From Chiloscyllium plagiosum (taxonomy: Eukaryota): a DNA stretch of 64,000 nucleotides. The stretch spans positions 10,080,728 to 10,144,727 of the forward strand of contig NC_057749.1 of the NCBI RefSeq assembly GCF_004010195.1, in the 5' to 3' direction. The position numbers were made by a program, and so were the translations under genes. Position 1 is the stretch's first letter, and each line of letters opens with the position of its first letter. The notes under the pieces were generated by a model. That model saw only the letters and a program-made list of their open reading frames with translations. It was not told where the DNA came from and ran no database searches. Positions 4,748 to 63,889 of this stretch are shown here, piece after piece.

Positions 4748-5697
4748 GTCCTCCCTGCAGAGAGACGTGGAGCATAGTCCTCTCTGCAGAGGGACGTGGA
4801 GTACAGTCCTCCCTGCAGAGGGACGTGGAGTACAGTCCTCCCTGCAGAGGGACATGGAGTACAGTCCTCCCTGCAGAGGGCCATGGAGCACAGTCCTCCC
4901 TGCAGAGGGACGTGGAGCACAGTCCTCCCTGAAGAGGGACATGGAACACAGTCCTCCCTGAAGAGGGACATGGAACACAGTCTCACCTTCAGAGGGACGT
5001 AGAGCACAGTCCTCCCTGCAGAGGGATATGGAGCACAGTCCTCCCTGCAGAGGGACATGGAACACAGTCGCACCTGCAGAGGGACGTGGAGCACAGTCCT
5101 TCCTGCAGAGGGACATGGAGTACAGTCCTCCCTGCAGAGTGATGTAGAGCAGAGTCCTCCCTTCAGAGGGACATGGAGCACAGTCCTCCCTCAGAGGGAC
5201 ATGGAGTACAGTCCTCCCTGCAGAGGGACATGGAGCACAGTCCTCCCTGCAGAGGGACGTGGAGCATAGTCCTCCCTGCAGAGAGACGTGGAGCACAGTC
5301 CTCTCTGCAGAGGGACGTGGAGTACAGTCCTCCCTTCAGAGGGACATGCAGCACAGTCCTCCCTGCAGAGGGACGTGGAGTACAGTCCTTCCTTCAGAGG
5401 GACATGGAGCACAGTCCACCCTGCAGAGGGACATGGAGCACAGTCCTCCCTGCAGAGGGACGTGGAGCACAGTCCTCTCTACAGAGGGACATGGAGCACA
5501 GTCCTCCCTCAGAGGGACATGGAGTACAGTCCTCCCTCAGAGGGACATGGAGTACAGTCCTCCCTGCAGAGGGACGTGGAGCACAGTCCTCCCTCTGAGG
5601 GACATGGAGTACAGTCCTCCCTGCAGAGGGACATGGAGCACAGTCCTCCCTCAGAGGGACGTGGAGCACAGTCCTCCCTGCAGAGGGACGTGGAGCA
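4748..5697. repeat. Second array of the same 29-bp minisatellite, about 33 copies
   Basis: Tandem gtcctccctgcagagggac[a/g]tggag[c/t]aca units, a few shortened to 27 bp. Confidence 0.95.
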
Positions 5698-6235
5698 CTG
5701 TGGTACTTTGGGCTTGTGGAACAATCTGGTACAAATTTCAGTGTACAGGCATCTCTGATTTACAAAGATCTGACTTATAAAGGCAGTCCCAAATGGGTGT
5801 AATTTTAATTATCTAACAAATAACCATTTCAATTATTTACGGTTAGCAACTTTATATTGTCTTGTCTTGTGTCCTGACCTACGCATGAGTCGACTTGCGG
5901 ACAGATTCAGACATGAAACCTGCGGGCTACCTGTCCTCATTCCAGTTCAGTCATAACAGTGTTGAGATTAAAGGTCAACGGTAATTCAAAACAGCTCAAG
6001 TGGCTGAATAGATTACTCCTCTTGTCCCAATGTCCCTTTAAAACAATGTAGTTTTGCTTAAACAATACTACAGCCTCTTGTGAGCAAATGTGTTGTGCGT
6101 GGAAGAATTTCACTTATCATTATACATTTCCCTCATCGAGGCAAATATTCCTTAATTTATTTAAATCATAAAGCCTTCTTTTGCAGGTTTATCTCTAGCT
6201 ACTTGCAATTTTATTGCCCTGTGGTATCATTTCAG

Positions 6236-6414
6236 ACATGGTACAAGAGCGATTGGACATGGCAAAATGTCTGGGTGCCTCTTGTGTTTGCAAGATGGAA
6301 AAGAACACATGTCCTCGAGAAATGGCATCCAAAGTCAAAACTGCTCTTTGTGGTATGCCAAACATATCTATTGAATGCACTGGGGCAGATCAATGTGTAC
6401 AGACAGCTATCCAT
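6236..6414 (+). CDS. SORD: SORD-like paralog A, exon 7 (179 bp): DMVQERLDMAKCLGASCVCKMEKNTCPREMASKVKTALCGMPNISIECTGADQCVQTAIH
   Basis: tttcag|AC acceptor, CAT|gtaagt donor; contains the IECTGA motif and the NAD-specificity Asp at the exon 6/7 junction. Confidence 0.93.
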
Positions 6415-7870: not shown

Positions 7871-7992
7871 GCTACCAACCCAGGAGGAGTTGTGGTTCTG
7901 ATTGGTTTGGGTAACACGAACACGTCTGCCCCCCTATTAACTGCGACAACACGTGAGTTGGATATCCGAGGAATTTTCAGATACTGTAACAC
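7871..7992 (+). CDS. SORD: SORD-like paralog A, exon 8 (122 bp): ATNPGGVVVLIGLGNTNTSAPLLTATTRELDIRGIFRYCNT
   Basis: tttttttaag|GCT acceptor, AC|gtaagt donor; RE.DIRG.FRYCNT motif. Confidence 0.95.
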
Positions 7993-9827
7993 GTAAGTGG
8001 CAAAGAGATCATAGTTAGTTTTCAATTAAAAAAAGCTTATGGGCCCACAAGTTTTGCCCGTTTGACTGTGGTTTTATTTACATTCTTCCACTTAACATGT
8101 TCAGACGTAGTATGATCCACTTCTGGAATAGTTGGGAACTGAAACTAAGCCTCCTGGCTCAGAGGTAGGGACCTTACCACTGTGTCATTAAAAACCCATA
8201 ATGCTGCATCGTTCATTACAAAGGGTAGAATTTCATCCGGGTGACTGCATCTCATCTGCATTGCTGCCTCTGGGGAACATGCTCTGTCCTCGGTGCCAAT
8301 CAGACACTTAAATGGCCAGAGACAGCCTTCCGCGGGATCAAGGTTTTCAAAGATACCCACCCCCATGAGATTAGCAGGCCACTCTGAGGTTGGCAGCTCT
8401 CTATAGCAAGCAGCACCACCTGTGGGTATCCTGTTGGTAATGCCCCTACCACGGGTCCTCTTACTGATCCTGAGCCTAAGTCAAAGGACAGGAGTGATAC
8501 ACTGGCTGGGGGCATTGGGAAAAAAGGACAGGGAGAGCGGTTCCGAGTGGTCCACTCCCTTTTTGATGCCGAGCTCCTCATTTAGCTTTGAGTGGCTGAC
8601 AGCAGAGCCCACAGACAAATGTGCCTAGGGTTTTTCTTTGCTGTTCAATAGGGCCCTGCCTGTCAATGAATGTCCATTTAAAGGCTTTGCTTTGGCTTTG
8701 AGTGAGATGGCCTGGGCTTCCTCTCCTTAAAGTCATGGAGGGAAGGTGGCAGGATTCCTATCTGCCTCTCTGGTCTGATGAAATGCGCCCCACTTACTTA
8801 CAAAATCTCCTTGGGGGAGGGAGGGCATTAATTTCCAGCACCACTCTAATCTTGACTCTGATCTCCAGCATCTGCGGTACTCACTTTTGCATTATTAATT
8901 TCCACCTGTTGAATTTACAGCACTGGAATGAGCAATTTATTTATATTGGTTTCTTGCTGCACAGGAGCTTCCTGCCAATTGGTTTTGTTGATCTCCCCCC
9001 AACTCAACCTTTCTTATACTTCTTTTCCTAATCTACTTGCTTAACTATCCCTTACCTGCATATGAGCTACTATTCTAAGTCAATTCTTACACAGGTGTGT
9101 TGCACATTCTAGCCTCTTGCTGCATACAATGTTTCTCCTGAATACATTTTTGGATTAATTAGTGTTTGTCTGATATTTGAGGCCCTGGTATAGATATCCA
9201 AAGATGTGCAGGTCATGCTAAATTGCCCATAATGTTAGGTGCATTAGTCAGAGGGAAATGGGTCTGGGTGGATTACTCTTCGGAGGGTCGGTGTGGACTG
9301 GTTGGGCCGAAGGGCCTGTTTCCACACTGTAGGGAATCTAATATCCCAGTGCAGAAATGTCCTTTCTATGCAGGATAGTGCAACAGGTTTCGTGCTGTGG
9401 AGCAATGAGTATTGAGTTTACCAGGATATTTGGGTTCAGTGCAAAGGTTCACTAAAGAAAACAATTAAATTCATAGATTCATATACTCATACTGTGCAGA
9501 AAAAGCCCTTTGAATTTGCACCGATGTAGCTACCACTGAAAGTGCGCTGATCCCAATTTCCTGCACTTGTCCCATATTCTTGAATGTTCTGACATTTTGA
9601 AGCACTCATCCAAGTATTCTTTAAAGGTTGTAAGGTTTCCAGTCCCCACTATTTCCCAGGCAGTGCATTCCAGATTCTCATTACCCACTAGGTGAAAGTG
9701 TTTGTAGATAAGCGAGAGTCCTGGATCAGCAATAAGGTGTCATGATCTGTGGAATCAAAAGTCTGCTTCAAAAGGCCATGAAACCATCAATTGTCATTAA
9801 AACCCCAATGTTCACTGGGGGAAAGAC

Positions 9828-10278
9828 ATTTGCCATCCTTACCTGGTCTGCGCGTATACATTTGCCATCCTTACCAGGTCTGCGTGTATGGATTTGCCAT
9901 CCTTACCTGGTCTGCGTGTATGGATTTTCCATCCATACCAGGTCTGCGTGTATATATTTGCCATCCTTACCAGGTCTGCGTGTATACATTTGCCATCCTT
10001 ACCTGGTCTGCGCGTATACATTTGCCATCCTTACCTGGTCTGCGTGTATGGATTTGCCATCCTTACCTGGTCTGCGTGTATGGATTTGCCATCCTTACCA
10101 GGTCTGCGCATATACATTTGCCATCCTTACCTGGTCTGCGTGTACATTTGCCATCCTTACCAGGTCTGCGTATATACATTTGCCATCCTTACCTGGTCTG
10201 CGCGTATACATTTGCCATCCTTACCTGGTCTGCGCGTATACATTTGCCATCCTTACCTGGTCTGCGTGTATACATTTG
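9828..10278. repeat. Minisatellite, 32-bp unit (catttgccatccttacctggtctgcgcgtata), about 14 copies
   Basis: Direct tandem repetition. Confidence 0.95.
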
Positions 10279-11989: not shown

Positions 11990-12557
11990 CTTGATTGTTT
12001 GTTGAGTCTCTCATCTGTTAGAATGACCATGATAGTTTCACTTGTTTCATATGTAAAAGTTACATTCTCAGGTTAACTGTAACAATTAGTGTCAGCCAGA
12101 TACTATGTTGAAGGTGTTAACCCCCTGTGTTTCCTGTCTATGCCATGATGTTTAGATTGATTCTAATCTAAAAAGTGAGTTAACAGAGTCTTACATGGAT
12201 TCATGCAGATTTTGAGCAAAGTACAATGTAACTCTGCAAGTACAAATTCACCCCACAAAATATATGTATATGTATGCGTGTGTGCGCGCGTGTGTGTGTC
12301 TGGGGTGGGGGGTTGTGAGTGTGAAAGAGAGTGTATATGTGTGTATGCGAGTGTATAGAGTGCCCTAAGTCTGTGAGAGGATGCATGTGTGAGTGTGGGA
12401 GTGTGCGTGTCTGTAGGAGTGTGTGTGTGTCTGGGGTGAGGGGGTTGTGAGTGTCTGTGAGAGAAACTGTATGTGTGTATGTGTGGGTAAGAGTGTCTAT
12501 GTGTGTGTATAGTGCAATGGTGGTCACCTGTAGTGTGACATGAACCCAAGGTCCCGA
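11990..12557. repeat. Interspersed repeat with degenerate (TG)n tracts, probably the 3' region of a PLE
   Basis: Two similar TG-rich blocks at 12270-12510; family assignment is inference. Confidence 0.5.
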
Positions 12558-13658
12558 TAGTCTAGATCAGAATCTTTTCCAAGTACTCATTCCATCCCGA
12601 CCCCAGGCAAGAAGGGGAGAAACACTGATTTGAGGAATTCATGCTTTGGTTCTTTATTCGATTGCAATGCCAGATGTGCAGGCTGAGAAAGTATTAGCCT
12701 GAGGCGTATTCTTTACAGAAGCTGAAAACTGTTTGGGTGAATCTATCTTCTTTGCTTTTTTTTAAGTGCAAGTTATTTGAAACTGATCAATGCTGTCTTT
12801 GAAAGAGCAGCTATCAGGAGAATATTACACAAGCACAAGATTGTGGTAAATTCTGGACTTTAGTAGCTGAGCGTGGGGCTCTAAATGAAGGGAGTATTTT
12901 CTTTACTCATTTGTGGGACGTAGGCACCATTGGCTGGGCCCACCATTTATTACCCGTCCCTAATTGCCCCTTGAGAAAGTGGTGGTGAGCTGCCTTCTTG
13001 AACCGCTGCAGCCCACCTGCTGTGGGTTGATCCACAATGCCATTAGGGAGGGAATTCCAGGATTTTGACCCAGCCACAGTGAAAGAACAGTGATATATGT
13101 CAAAGTCAGGATGGTGAGTGGCTTGGAGGGGAACTTGAAGGGGGTAGTGTCTTCCCAAGTATCTGCTGCCTTGTCCTTCTATTTGGAGGTGGTCGTGGGT
13201 TTGAAAGATGCGGTCTCTTGGTGAATTTCCGCGGTGCATCTTGTAGATATCATGGTCATACTGTGCTCCACGAACTGTGGCCCCATTTCAGGACTTGGAA
13301 AATGTGGCAGCCTCTCTGTGAAACCGGCGAGATTGGTTGGGGAAAGGGGTACAGAGGAGCTCGGGTGTCTGTGAAAGTGAGGGGCCTGGTCTGGTAAAGT
13401 GGGAGCACAGCTGGAACAAATCTGTCAGAGCTCCATTAGAGCCCATACCAACGTTGCAGATTGGAACTCCAAGATTTGGGCAAGTGGCCCCCACTTGGGG
13501 CCCCAACCCCCACTTTGGGAAGCCCTGTTTCAATCAGAATCAATAAAATGGACCTTGGTGTATAAGGTTTAAGTGGTTCCAATGTGCACCAACTGTAGGA
13601 CAACAGTCGGAAATATGTGCCAGTTGCTCATCTCATGTTTTTGTCGCTTTTTATTTAG

Positions 13659-13950
13659 GTGGCCCACGGCCATAAACATGTTAGCTTCAAAGAAGGTGGA
13701 TGTGAACCCAATGATCACACATCGTTTCCCCTTGGACCAGGCCATTGAGGCATTTGAGTTGGTGAAGAAAGGTGGAGGACTCAAGGTGATGATTAATTGT
13801 GAGGAGCCAGAAAAGAAGGAACACAAACAGTCGAAATCACTGGAAGAATGTCAGAAACAGTGTCAGCAGCTTCTGCAGCAGTGTCAGCAACAGTGTCAGC
13901 AGATGCAGAAAGAACAGAAAGAGCATTGTGGGCGCACTGCTGGTCACTAA
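13659..13950 (+). CDS. SORD: SORD-like paralog A, terminal exon 9 with 49-aa Gln/Cys-rich extension
   Basis: tttag|G acceptor; [47 protein letters not shown] followed in frame by EEPEKK...[18 protein letters not shown]...GH*. Confidence 0.93.
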
Positions 13951-14041
13951 TGACCTTGCTTACCCCGCCCACAAGGTGTGACACATGCACAGTGCAGACC
14001 TGAGGGCTATGTTTTCAACAAATAGCTGTTTCCAAGTCTGT

Positions 14042-14047
14042 AATAAA
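14042..14047 (+). terminator. Candidate polyadenylation signal of paralog A
   Basis: AATAAA about 90 nt after the stop codon, followed by a GT-rich stretch (gtgtgttt). Confidence 0.6.
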
Positions 14048-14386
14048 CACTCTGATTGCATTTCTAAGATGTGTGTTTAGTAAAGCTTCATTGGTGCATC
14101 GTTTTCTCCAGTTCCCTAATCCAGTGGATAGTGAAGAAGGTGATCTCAAGAATACAATGGGACCTTGATCAGATGGGCCAAGGAGTGGCAGGTAGAGTTT
14201 AATTTAGATAAATCTGAGGTATTTTAGAAAGGCAAATCAGGCTGAACTGATACACTTAATGATAAAGTCCTGGGGAGTATTGCCGAATCGAGATCTTGGA
14301 TTGCAGGTTCATAGTTCCTTGAAAATGGAGTCACAGGATAGTGAATAAGGTGTTTAGTGCACTTGCCTTTATTGGTCACTGCATGA

Positions 14387-16270
14387 CATAGAACATAGAA
14401 CAGTACAGCACAGTACAGGCTGTACTGATGCGTGCCAGCCTTTTATCCTACTCTAAGATCAGACTAAACTACATACAACTTCCATGTGCCTAACCAGGAA
14501 TCGCTTAATTGTCCCTAATGTATCTGACTCCAATACCACTGCTGGCAGTGCATTCCACACACTCTCTGAGTAAAGAATCTACTTCTGACATCTCCCCTAA
14601 ACCTTCCTCCAATCATCTTAAAATTATGCTCCCTCATGATAGACATTTCCACCCTGGGAAATAATCTCTGGCTGTCCACTCTATCTATGCCTCTCTACAT
14701 CTCGTATACCTCTATCAGGTCACTTCTCATCCTTCTTCACTCCAATGAGAAAAGCTCTAGCTCCCTCAACCTGCCCTCCAGTCCAGGTAGCATCCTGGTA
14801 AATCTCCTCTGCACCATCTCTACAGCTTCCACATCCTTCCTATATTGAGGTGATCAGAACTGAACACAATATTCCAAGTGTGGTCTAACCAGGGCTCCGT
14901 AGAGCTGCATCATAACCTTGCGGCTCTTAAACGTAATCCCCCTGCTAATGAAAGCCAATACACCATATGCCTTCTTAACAATCCTATCAACTTGGGTGAC
15001 AACTTTGAGGGACCTTTGGATGTGAACCCCAAGATCCCTCTGTTCCTCTGCACTGCTAAGAATCCTGCCTTTACCACTGTATTCTGCATTCAAATTCGAC
15101 CTTCCGAAGTGAATCACTCCACACTTTTCCAGGTTGAACTCCCATCTGCCATTTCTCAGCCCAGTTCTGCATCCTGTCAATGTCCCATTACAACAGCCCT
15201 CCACATTATCCACAACTCCATCAACCTTTGTGTCATCAGCAAACCTACTAACCCACCATTCCACTTCCTTATCCAAGTCATTTATAAAAATCAAAAAGAA
15301 TAGAGCTCCTAGAACCGATACCTGCGGAACACCACTGGTCACCAAGCTCCAGACTGAATATTTCCCACATCCCACCACCCCTGTCTTCTATGGGACAGCC
15401 AATTCTGTATCCAGACAGCCAGATTTCCCTGTATCCCATGCCTCCTTGCTTTCTGAATGAGCCTACCATGGGGAACCTTATCAAACACCTTGCTAAAATC
15501 CACGTACACCACATCCACTGGTCTACCTTCAACATGTTTTGTCACATCCTCAAAGAATTCAATAAGGTTTGTGAGGCATGACCTGCCCTTCACAAAGCCA
15601 TGCTGACTATCCCTAATCAAACTATGATTATCCAAGTAATCATAAATCCTGTCTCTCAGAATCCCCACAAATAATTTGCCCACTACTGACATAAGACTGA
15701 CCAGTCTGTAATTCCCAGGAAAATCCCTATTCCCTTTCTTGAACAAGGGAATAACAAATGCCACCCTCCAATCAGTTAGCACTACTGTGGACAGTGAGAA
15801 CACAAAGACCATTGCCAAAGGCTTCCTGTAGTAACCTAGGGTACATCCCGTCTGGCCCAGGGATTTATTTATCCTTACTTTCTTCAAAATGTTTCAGCAC
15901 ATTCCCCTTCCTAATATCAACCTTTCGAGTATATCAGTCTGTTTCACGCTGTCCTCAGAAACATCAAGGTCCCTCTCTGTAGTGAATACTGAAACACGGT
16001 ATTCCTTAAGGACCTCCCCTACCTCCTCCAACTTCTGGCACAAGTTTCCCTCCACTATCTCTTATCAGGCCTACCCTCACTCTGATCATCCTCTTGTTCC
16101 TCACGTAAGTGTAGAATGTCTTAGGGTTTTCCTTAATCCTATCTGCTAAAGCTTTTTCATGCCCCCTTCTAGTTTTCCCAAGTGCATTCTTCAGTTCCTT
16201 CCTGGCTACCTTCTAACCCTGTAAAGCCCTATCTGATCCTTGCCTCTTCAACCTTAAGTAGGCTTCCTTC
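14387..16270 (-). mobile_element. CR1-type LINE, about 1.9 kb 5'-truncated copy (RT domain and tail), decayed
   Basis: QHGFVKGRSCLTNL, DFSKVFDKVPH, SGVPQ, FADDTK and RPHLEYCVQF motifs. Confidence 0.93.
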
Positions 16271-41612: not shown

Positions 41613-41638
41613 TCTTTAAAATTTATAATTTCTTTCAG

Positions 41639-56039: not shown

Positions 56040-56556
56040 ATGTAAAGTTAGCTCGCTGAGCTTGAAGATTTGTTTTCAGACGTTTCGTCACCATGACTAG
56101 GTAACATCATCAATGAGAGTCTCTGGTGAAGTGCTGGTGGTATGTCCCGCCTCTCTATTTATAGGTCTTGGTTTCTTAAGGTTGGTGATTTGATTTCCTG
56201 TTCTTTTTTTCAAAAGAAGGTAGATAGGATCAAAGTCGATGTGTTTATTAATGGGAGTTCTGGTTAGAATGCCATGCCTCGAGGAATTCTCGTGCGTGTT
56301 TTTGTTTTGCCTGTCATAGGATGTGTGTGTTGTCCCAGTCAAAATGGTGTCCTTTTTTGTATGGAAACTAATGATAGTGGGTTGTGTCTTTTGGTGGCCA
56401 GTTGGTGTTCATGTATCCTACTGACAAGTTTCCTGCTAGATTGTCCGACATAGTGTTTTTTACAGTTCTTGCATGGTATCTTGTAAATGACATTAGTTTT
56501 GCTGACAGTATCTAATGGATCCTTTAGGTTCATTAGTCTCTGTTTAGGTGTGTTTA
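56040..56556 (-). mobile_element. PLE GIY-YIG fragment and 3' terminus
   Basis: VIYKIPCKNCKKHYVGQSSRKLVSRIHEH; ETLIDDVT end homologous to the element at 32.6 kb. Confidence 0.87.
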
Positions 56557-57992
56557 TAGAGTCATAGTCATAGAGATGTACAGCATGGAAACAGACCCTT
56601 CGGTCCAACCTGTCCATGCTGACCAGATATCCCAACCCAATCGAGTCCCACCTGCCAGCACCCGGCCCATATCCCTCCAAACCCTTCCTATTCATATACC
56701 CATCCAGATGCCTTTTAAATATTGCAATTGTACCAGCCTCCACCACTTCCTCTGGCAGCTCATTCCATACATGTACCAACCTCTGTGTGAAAAAGTTGCC
56801 TCTTAGGTCTCTTTTATATCTTTCCCCTCTCACCCTAAACCCTCTAGTTCTGGACTTTCCCACCTCAGGGAAAAGACCTTGTCTATTTACCCTATCCATG
56901 ACCCTCATGATTTTATAGACCTCTATAAGGTCACCCTTCAGCCTCCGACGCTCCAGGGAAAACAGCCCCAGCCTATTCAACCTCTCCCTATAGCTCAAAT
57001 CCTCCAACCCTAGCAACATTCTTGTAAATCTTTTCTGAACCCTTTCAAATTTCACAATATCCTTCCGATAGGAAGGAGACCAGAATTGCAAACAATATTC
57101 CAAAAGTGGCCGAACCACTGTCCTGTACAACTGCAACATGACCTCCCAACTCCTGTACTCAATACCCTGACTAATAAAGGAAAACATGCCAGACGCCTTC
57201 TTCACTATCCTATCTACCTGTGACTCTTCTTTCAAGGAGCTATGAACCTGCACTCCAAGGTCTCTTTTTTCAGGAAAGGACCTGACTATTAAGTGTATAA
57301 GTCCTGTTAAGATTTGCTTTTGAAAAAGCAGCACCTTGCATTTATCTAAATTAAACTCTATCTGCCACTTCTCGGCCCATTGGCTCATCTGATAAAGATC
57401 CCGTTGTAATTCAAGGTAACCTTCTTCGCTGTCCACTACACCTCCAATTTTGGTGTCATCTGCAAACTTACTAATTATACATCTAAACTCATATCGGAGT
57501 CATTTATATAAATGACAAAAAGTAGTGGACCCAGCACAGATTCTTGTGGCGCTCCACTGGTCACAGGCCTCTAGTCTGAAAAACAACCCTCCACCACCAC
57601 CCTCTGTCTTCTACCTTTGAGCCAGTTCTGTATCCAAATAGCTAGTTCTCCATGTATTCCATGAGATCTAACCTTGCTAATCAGTCTCCCATGGGGAACC
57701 TTGTCGAACGCCTGACTGAAGTCCATATAGATCACATCCACCGCTCTACCCTCATCAGTCTTCTTTGTTACTAAGTCAAAAAACTCAATCAAGTTTGTGA
57801 GACATGATTTCCCACGCACAAAGCCATGTTGACTGTCCCTAATCAGTCCTTGCCTTTCCAAATACATGTACTTCCTGTCCCTCATGGTTCTCTCCAACAA
57901 CTTGCCCACTACCAACATCAGGCTCACCGGTCTATAGTTCCCTGGTTTGTCCTTGCCACCTTTTTTTAAACAGTGGCATCACGTTAGCCAAA
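56557..57992 (-). mobile_element. CR1-type LINE, about 1.4 kb 5'-truncated copy (RT plus tail)
   Basis: QHGFVRGKSCLTNL, DFSQAFDKVPH, RPLLEYCLQFW; (ctatga)n tail. Confidence 0.93.
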
Positions 57993-63732: not shown

Positions 63733-63889
63733 GTGGCCAGTGGCAATCGATATGTTGGCTTCAAAGCGTATTGATGTGAAACCTTTGATCACTCATCGCT
63801 TTCCCCTGGAAGAGGCTCTCGAAGCGTTTGAAACCACAAAGAAAGGAGTGGGAATCAAAGTCATGTTGAAATGTGACCCGGACAACTAG
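63733..63889 (+). CDS. SORD: SORD-like paralog B, terminal exon 9: [51 protein letters not shown]
   Basis: cttcag|G acceptor; canonical short SORD C-terminus; TAG ends at 63889. Confidence 0.96.

Follow-up and report, generated by a model that had tools for sequence, protein, structure and literature searches.

One of the sorbitol dehydrogenase (SORD) genes of Chiloscyllium plagiosum, here called copy A, encodes an enzyme that is extended at its C-terminus by a tail of 49 residues, rich in cysteine and glutamine and predicted to contain a long helix. We propose that the tail is a thiol-based module for association or tethering, acting through disulfides or metal ions, on an otherwise intact enzyme; we regard this proposal as evenly poised between right and wrong. 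The gene was studied in a stretch of 64,000 nucleotides, referred to below as the window.

The copy A gene and its last exon

Four exons of copy A lie on the forward strand of the window, with AG/GT borders throughout. They comprise an internal coding exon at 607–672 (…TIGLMNLLVAKSMGADPIVVV), located by tblastn; a coding exon at 6236–6414 that carries paralog-specific cysteines of the enzyme body (AKC…SCVCKMEKNTC…TALC), located by tblastn and splice-site inspection, its cysteines being picked out by comparison of alignment columns; the penultimate coding exon at 7871–7992, located by tblastn and splice-site inspection, with its donor GTAAGT at 7993; and the last exon at 13659–13950, preceded by a polypyrimidine tract and an AG at 13657–13658. 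Together they encode 218 residues, which match the C-terminal 218 of P0125 without a difference; P0125 is a 395-residue RefSeq protein of C. plagiosum annotated as 'sorbitol dehydrogenase-like'. Earlier exons are found just upstream of the window in the C. plagiosum genome and show 100% identity to P0125 except at one residue, a mismatch that marks the edge of a tblastn match crossing an exon border. Long minisatellites occupy parts of the copy A introns, at 2536–2996 and 4748–5698 (16 and 33 copies of a 29-nucleotide unit) and at 9826–10278 (14 copies of a 32-nucleotide unit).

The conserved enzyme portion of the last exon (WPTAINML…KVMINC) covers 13659–13800 on the forward strand, as defined by reading of the frame, by protein search and by the starts of the X3 and X4 transcript contigs described below. 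A sequence-only reading of this DNA had claimed that the SORD frame continues past KVMINC, and this is so: 49 further residues are encoded by 13801–13947, followed by a TAA stop codon at 13948–13950. The AATAAA that it placed downstream of the tail is present at 14042–14047, within a forward-strand 3' UTR that spans 13951–14053 and whose far end is that of the X3 contig. Copy B, a canonical, tail-less SORD paralog located by tblastn at 41638–63889 on the same strand, stops soon after the equivalent cysteine, as the same reading had stated; its last exon, at 63733–63889, ends in CDPDN with the stop codon at 63887–63889. Short C-termini are also the rule for vertebrate SORD. Among 122 SORD-family proteins fetched, 107 end at most eight residues past the last conserved cysteine, nine have the copy A tail type and two have a second tail type discussed below, the rest being one record with an unrelated 44-residue end and three without the anchor motif.

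The tail can be divided into three parts, all on the forward strand. A linker of 13 acidic and polar residues (13801–13839), predicted with pLDDT below 50 and differing in length and sequence among species, leads into a core of 22 residues (13840–13905) with the pattern C-x3-C-x6-C-x3-C, whose cysteine codons begin at 13849, 13861, 13882 and 13894. The remaining 14 residues (13906–13950, stop codon TAA included) contain a fifth cysteine at 13927–13929. Prenylation (CaaX) and peroxisomal (SKL-type) signals were considered for the tail and dropped, judging by the chain ends, which read …TAGH, …GGRS and …SPGR.

Part of the tail is built from repeats, again in agreement with the earlier claim. Three copies of the 11-mer CAGTGTCAGCA lie in the tail, at 13858, 13879 and 13891, and the remainder of the 64 kb has none; the chance expectation is 0.07, and three copies were reached in none of 100 shuffles. 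An imperfect 12-nucleotide tandem array on the forward strand, with the unit TGTCAGCAACAG (reading CQQQ) present in 4.7 copies at 13849–13901 according to Tandem Repeats Finder, lies underneath the CX3C periodicity.

Elsewhere in the window, two open frames on the reverse strand, at 15342–15893 (RVT_1 match, 1.2e-13) and at 56342–57499 (RVT_1 match, 2.9e-4, below the Pfam cut-off), are probably LINE remnants, as judged from these matches.

Transcription of the tail exon

Positions 12450–14600 of the window were compared with four public sequencing runs, X1, X3, X4 and X18. In X3, from organism B, the first 395 letters of a 1686-nucleotide contig (depth 36) align with 13659–14053. This contig starts at the first base after the acceptor AG and stops just beyond the polyA signal, and its other 1291 letters fall outside 12450–14600, even though that interval includes 1.2 kb of the upstream intron. 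A contig of 417 nucleotides in X4, from organism C, matches 13659–13902 from its letter 174 onwards, and its other letters likewise fall outside 12450–14600. The intron bins beside the exon, which serve as a silent-stretch control, are empty in X4, and in X3 as well except for a single stray bin of low depth. Since both contigs match from exactly 13659 and that of X3 reaches 14053, we conclude that at least two close relatives splice and polyadenylate the last exon and read it colinearly across the tail, and the possibility that the exon is not transcribed, raised in the sequence-only reading, falls away.

Three coding differences separate the X3 contig from the window (13746 T>C, 13776 A>C and 13890 A>G), all of them at third positions and synonymous, with one more difference in the UTR. 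Run X1 yields a colinear piece of 1057 nucleotides that spans intron and exon, and is therefore genomic or unspliced and uninformative on expression. The single-cell RNA run X18, of which ∼2% was sampled, has zero reads on the exon.

Two further features of these comparisons concern other sequences. A short contig of high depth (245–380) covers 13674–13817 in X1 and X4, with differences at 13710 and 13711; most likely it derives from a different, more strongly expressed SORD paralog, whose transcript was admitted at the 88% threshold. In all four runs, summed contig depth is very high over 12950–13300 and 14106–14600, and variant letters and loose ends abound there; these stretches look like interspersed repeats on either side of the last exon. 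From 14144 the translation is retroelement-like (WAKEWQVEFN…).

Conservation across sharks and rays

The first protein search found the tail in nine other elasmobranch proteins, and cluster look-ups extended the set to 27 proteins of this tail type. Of the 21 named species represented, 13 are sharks, belonging to six orders, and eight are batoids; one record is an unnamed transcript. Orthologs thus do not stop at the canonical site, one of the outcomes that had been envisaged for a recent loss of the stop codon. The C-x3-C-x6-C-x3-C pattern and the fifth cysteine are present in 27/27, the length of the core is constant and no frameshifts are seen. An identical 16-mer of the tail is shared by 13 of the proteins, and the others differ from it at one to three positions, none of them a cysteine. 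Mean pairwise identity is 0.84 for the 22-residue core (rank 24 of 197 windows of the same size), 0.77 for the enzyme body and 0.42 for 12 residues of the linker, whose length up to the first tail cysteine ranges from 10 to 21 residues. The spacing between the fourth and fifth cysteines is 10 residues in 14 proteins, 6 in 11, and 9 and 7 in one protein each. As judged from these alignments, the cysteines are the most strictly kept feature of the tail, and the tail is not the product of a recent stop loss, being older than the shark–ray split. That a glutamine-rich, repeat-derived core is fixed in length while the adjoining poly-Gln varies indicates that the core is under constraint.

These data bear on whether the extension might be functionless low-complexity sequence that arose when a stop codon was lost and CAG/TGT repeats slipped behind it, or else an untranslated artefact of annotation. 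The imperfect 12-nucleotide repeat from which the core is made would fit such an origin, as would the variable length of the glutamine-rich linker and the failure of the tail on its own to retrieve relatives. However, the core length and the five cysteines are constant in every one of the 27 proteins, across sharks and rays; the core is more alike among species than the enzyme body; the coding differences from organism B are synonymous only; spliced transcripts continue through the tail; and the second tailed paralog is conserved too. We regard this explanation as extremely improbable and close to refuted.

Searches beyond the tailed SORDs gave little. The tail alone had 0 matches at E <= 0.001 among 1.84 billion representative proteins, and as a region query against proteins of 228–728 residues it matched elasmobranch SORD-like proteins only. 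A query of the ESM Atlas returned no usable match, a sequence search of the PDB returned non-significant matches only, and word-based protein searches showed no holocephalan (chimaera) among the best 120 matches listed. As far as these sequence searches reach, the tail appears to have no significant relative outside its own family that might lend it a function. In the C. plagiosum genome, the tail has one true site and two weak matches elsewhere (E = 0.07 and 0.6). The weak matches, on contig G000:C18, were rejected as further tails, since they belong to a satellite with many open frames, around 70.97 Mb of that contig; both strands of this satellite-like repeat can be read through in several frames (…QHCQRVSVEGV…, …DPLTVQHSLST…).

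A SORD gene cluster with two tail types

When the C. plagiosum genome was searched with P0125, four SORD-like genes were found within ∼320 kb of one contig. Copy C, ∼100 kb downstream of the window, is a second tailed paralog; its last exon (G000:C40:10244770-10245017) has its own acceptor and AATAAA and ends in …KVVINCEQQQQQCPSLCPQNQCGQQQSQCQTRQCPQHSFF before the stop codon, the protein reading …CPSLC…QCQTRQCPQHSFF. The fourth SORD-like gene, copy D, lies on the opposite strand at G000:C40 ∼10368400-10398082 and ends in KVMLKCD and a stop, like Heterodontus P0010 and P0156.

The second tail type was first met in rays (…KVLVNC-EQQQQQQ-CPSLCPPQCQQPQNQCQTKQCPQHSFF). It is annotated in three further shark and eight batoid species, and 12/12 records end in QCQT(K/R)QCPQH(S/N)FF. 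Because both tail types occur in sharks and in batoids, both are older than the shark–ray split. The second tailed paralog retains cysteine and glutamine but not the helix; as its cysteine array contains a proline, the helix is not the trait that the two tails have in common.

The relationships among these proteins were examined in a quick maximum-likelihood tree of 35 SORDs, from which a fill filter had removed the tail columns, with SH-aLRT supports and no bootstrap. Two insect sequences served as the outgroup, and one of these has a long branch. The proteins with tails, of both types, fall into a single clade (SH-aLRT 99). Its sister group is the canonical SORDs of elasmobranchs (SH-aLRT 95), and its place is inside vertebrate SORD. 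We read copy A as a sorbitol dehydrogenase duplicate specific to elasmobranchs.

The enzyme body and its cysteines

In P0125 the Pfam domains ADH_N (2.6e-27) and ADH_zinc_N (2e-24) are recognised, and the protein aligns with sheep SORD (3QE3) with E = 2e-162. The motifs GICGSD, LGHEASG and EEGAMIEPLS, which we take to be the zinc-ligand sites (Cys, His, Glu and a second Glu), are preserved in this alignment, and their columns are invariant or nearly so across the family; the motifs for the NAD cofactor are kept too. The catalytic machinery of copy A appears to be intact, and, judged in this way, copy A is a SORD by every testable criterion except its chain length.

The body is nonetheless enriched in cysteine relative to other SORDs. 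Proteins with the copy A tail type have a mean of 16.7 body cysteines (range 13–20, 19 proteins) and those with the second tail type have 21 (two proteins; range 18–28 over all twelve records), compared with means of 10.1 in canonical elasmobranch SORDs (range 10–11, eight proteins) and 11.2 in other vertebrates (range 10–13, 16 proteins). The copy-D type, with 15–16, is also above the canonical count. Cysteine is found at P0125 positions 210, 224 and 237 in all proteins of both tailed types, and at position 141 in 95% of the tail-type proteins. Other SORDs have N/S at 141, E/Q at 210, S at 224 and G at 237, residue types that suggest a surface location for all four cysteines. Position 98 is cysteine in 89% of tail-type proteins and Asp in other SORDs, and presumably falls within the loop that holds the structural-zinc cysteines of classical alcohol dehydrogenases.

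Predicted structure of the tail

Two AlphaFold2 models were made, one of full-length Heterodontus P0004 (39 aligned rows, mean pLDDT 60.8, poor overall) and one of the window's own last-exon product (12 aligned rows). Both alignments are shallow, and the method takes no account of disulfides. Each model has a disordered linker followed by a single helix with all five cysteines inside it, at residues 355–392 in P0004 (pLDDT 70–85) and 58–90 in the last-exon product (pLDDT 72–84). The helical appendage of the sequence-only reading is in line with both predictions. Its suggestion of a disulfide-stapled helical hairpin, in the manner of small Tims or alpha-hairpinins, is at odds with them: the predicted helix is uninterrupted in both models, and the invariant Leu-Leu pair shares the face of the cysteines.

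On a helical wheel, all eight Cys, Leu and Met residues of the core (8/8) fall between -20° and +80°, an arc of 100°, the remainder being Gln, Lys and Glu. Numbered from the first tail cysteine, these residues are L-3, C0, C4, L7, L8, C11, C15 and M18, and as read from the sequence the two sets of positions -3, 0, 4, 7 and 8, 11, 15, 18 are mirror-symmetric about the L7/L8 junction. The hydrophobic moment of the core is 0.44 compared with 0.15 for shuffled sequences, and was equalled by 0/2000 shuffles. The predicted helix would thereby carry a continuous apolar stripe, a trait of coiled-coil and amphipathic association helices, and if the helix continues the fifth cysteine would lie on the same face in 26/27 proteins.

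The same residues could be arranged as an intramolecular alpha-hairpin, with the two CX3C pairs on two short antiparallel helices joined by C1–C4 and C2–C3 disulfides into a compact, stable knob. The spacing in the tail fits the alpha-hairpinin motif CX3C-X4-20-CX3C, for which PMC11591084 gives X6 as the commonest predicted form. The top look-alike of the tail in the PDB is a vicilin-buried peptide (6o3q_A), although this match is not significant (E = 0.79), and the mirror symmetry of the apolar positions suits a hairpin no less than an antiparallel dimer. Both models, however, predict one unbroken helix. None of the 27 proteins has Gly, Pro or Asn in the 'loop' of six residues (QQLLQQ), whose Leu-Leu pair is invariant and lies on the cysteine face. 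Known hairpinins are secreted, whereas the tail is the end of an enzyme for which no signal peptide is evident on inspection by eye. A hairpin of this kind is, in our view, improbable.

A second arrangement confined to the one molecule is that the five thiols bind zinc, copper or a heavy metal within a single chain or tetramer and do not cross-link, the tail then storing or chaperoning the catalytic zinc or buffering metals or the redox state. SORD requires zinc, and designed helices with cysteines one turn apart bind soft metals. The cytosolic, reducing setting would suit metal binding, as would the clustering and invariance of the tail cysteines and the additional surface-type cysteines of the enzyme body. 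The two CX3C pairs, however, would be about three turns apart on a straight helix, too distant to hold one ion, so that a metal site internal to the chain would need a bend that is absent from the models; nor does the tail have the His- or Cys-dense pattern of metallothioneins. We consider a purely metal-handling tail unlikely, though less so than the hairpin.

A possible mode of association

The thiol-based association module that we propose would consist of three parts: a floppy acidic and glutamine-rich linker of 10–21 residues, an amphipathic alpha-helix of 22 residues and a near-terminal fifth cysteine. The narrow L-C-C-L/L-C-C-M stripe, the sole apolar face of the helix, would provide the association surface. 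Two tails, from different subunits or from different tetramers, or one tail and a cysteine-rich partner, could pack stripe to stripe. As the stripe is palindromic, the simplest pairing would be antiparallel about a two-fold axis, so that C0 would face C15' and C4 would face C11', around a central Leu pair. The SORD tetramer itself has two-fold axes, which would make antiparallel pairing of its tails sterically natural. Disulfides between the chains, or metal ions shared between CX3C pairs, would then lock the packed stripes, leaving the enzyme open to cross-linking or tethering.

An apparently intact enzyme of tetrameric type, a floppy tether, a helix with a narrow, palindromic Cys/Leu stripe, the extra surface-type thiols of the body and a second paralog that has kept cysteine and glutamine without the helix together suggest that the thiols do the work and that the tail serves association. 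Several observations weigh against the proposal: both structural models are built on few aligned rows, the second tail has a proline within its cysteine array, the distance to the fifth cysteine varies, and the searches gave the tail no significant outside relative from which to borrow a function. If the enzyme is cytosolic, its surroundings are reducing. This speaks against disulfides in living cells and for either metal bridging or late locking, in dying or maturing cells. The sequence-only reading had called copy A a neofunctionalised SORD. Because the appendage is conserved, transcribed, predicted to be helical and most strictly kept at its cysteines, a neofunctionalised paralog with a thiol-rich handle is a fair description of the duplicate; the part of that reading in which the handle cross-links, binds metal or anchors goes further, and we infer it, along with the association with itself or a partner, how the lock works chemically and where in the cell it acts.

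A bolder version, which we think rather unlikely, is that the two ancient, cysteine-enriched elasmobranch SORD paralogs serve as building material in an insoluble or long-lived assembly. One would contribute through its palindromic helix as an antiparallel 'cysteine zipper', held by as many as four disulfides between chains or by two metal sites that the chains share, and the other through its Cys/Pro/Gln tail, in a setting such as the sperm sheath, the lens or another thiol-cross-linked tissue. If true, this would represent a taxon-specific recruitment of an enzyme with a previously unseen cross-linking motif. The sequence-only reading had named an isoform tethered to sperm structures as one possibility. 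In the searched passages and supplementary tables of a catshark semen proteome (PMC11083954), the word 'sorbitol' is absent, and the accession-only lists there contain none of the three SORD accessions that could be derived for comparison (A0A401T3K3, A0A401Q554 and A0A401T3M7), nor the XP accessions; this comparison is incomplete with respect to the tailed fragment of S. torazame.

The tail is of interest on several grounds. The chain length of SORD is near-constant across vertebrates, and one vertebrate class has kept two distinct tails on its duplicates, which points to an elasmobranch-specific use of a polyol-pathway enzyme. The core is a clean case of a tandem 12-nucleotide repeat turned into a constrained protein module. 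As a palindromic motif of 22 residues, with a Cys-Leu stripe on a Gln background, it is small and easy to synthesise, and its association chemistry is directly testable.

Comparison with known systems

Full-text searches of the open literature found no description of a tailed elasmobranch SORD. The tail sequences are already public under the automatic annotation 'sorbitol dehydrogenase-like', and the module itself is undescribed as far as we have searched.

Vertebrate SORD, a member of the MDR superfamily with solved structures from sheep (3QE3) and human (1PL6, 1PL7 and 1PL8), is matched by copy A over the full enzyme body. Copy A differs in being 49 residues longer at the C-terminus, where the solved chains end at most eight residues past the last conserved cysteine, in having about six more cysteines in its body and in being one of four tandem paralogs.

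The CX3C-X6-CX3C spacing of the tail falls within the formal motif of plant alpha-hairpinins and vicilin-buried peptides as given in PMC11591084. In the PDB alignment the tail and the vicilin-buried peptide are both rich in Gln, Glu, Arg and Lys, with 'LQECQ..CQ' strings. The tail nevertheless has no significant similarity to alpha-hairpinins, 6o3q_A being the best match, and its predicted fold is a single helix, not helix-loop-helix. It also ends an animal enzyme of cytosolic type, in contrast to the secreted plant peptides, and convergence is the best account of the likeness. Small Tim proteins, the twin CX3C proteins of the mitochondrial intermembrane space, likewise have two CX3C pairs on helical segments. 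Their spacer between the motifs is roughly 11–16 residues long, compared with 6 in the tail, and they are small, stand-alone proteins, whereas the tail belongs to a larger enzyme. Pfam finds no family in the tail at E <= 0.001, the Tim10/DDP zinc-finger-like domain included. On these comparisons the tail is not a demonstrable member of either the alpha-hairpinins or the small Tims.

Some enzymes have isoforms that are tissue-specific and anchored by an extension, and some structural proteins of sperm have Cys/Pro-rich tails; GAPDHS and ODF1 are examples. Such cysteine-rich tails become cross-linked by disulfides. Copy A is likewise a duplicated enzyme with a terminal, low-complexity handle, although there is no relation in sequence. 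As leads from other systems, anchored enzyme isoforms and the cysteine-rich tails of sperm or cornified-cell proteins may be the closest working analogies for the tailed SORDs of sharks and rays.
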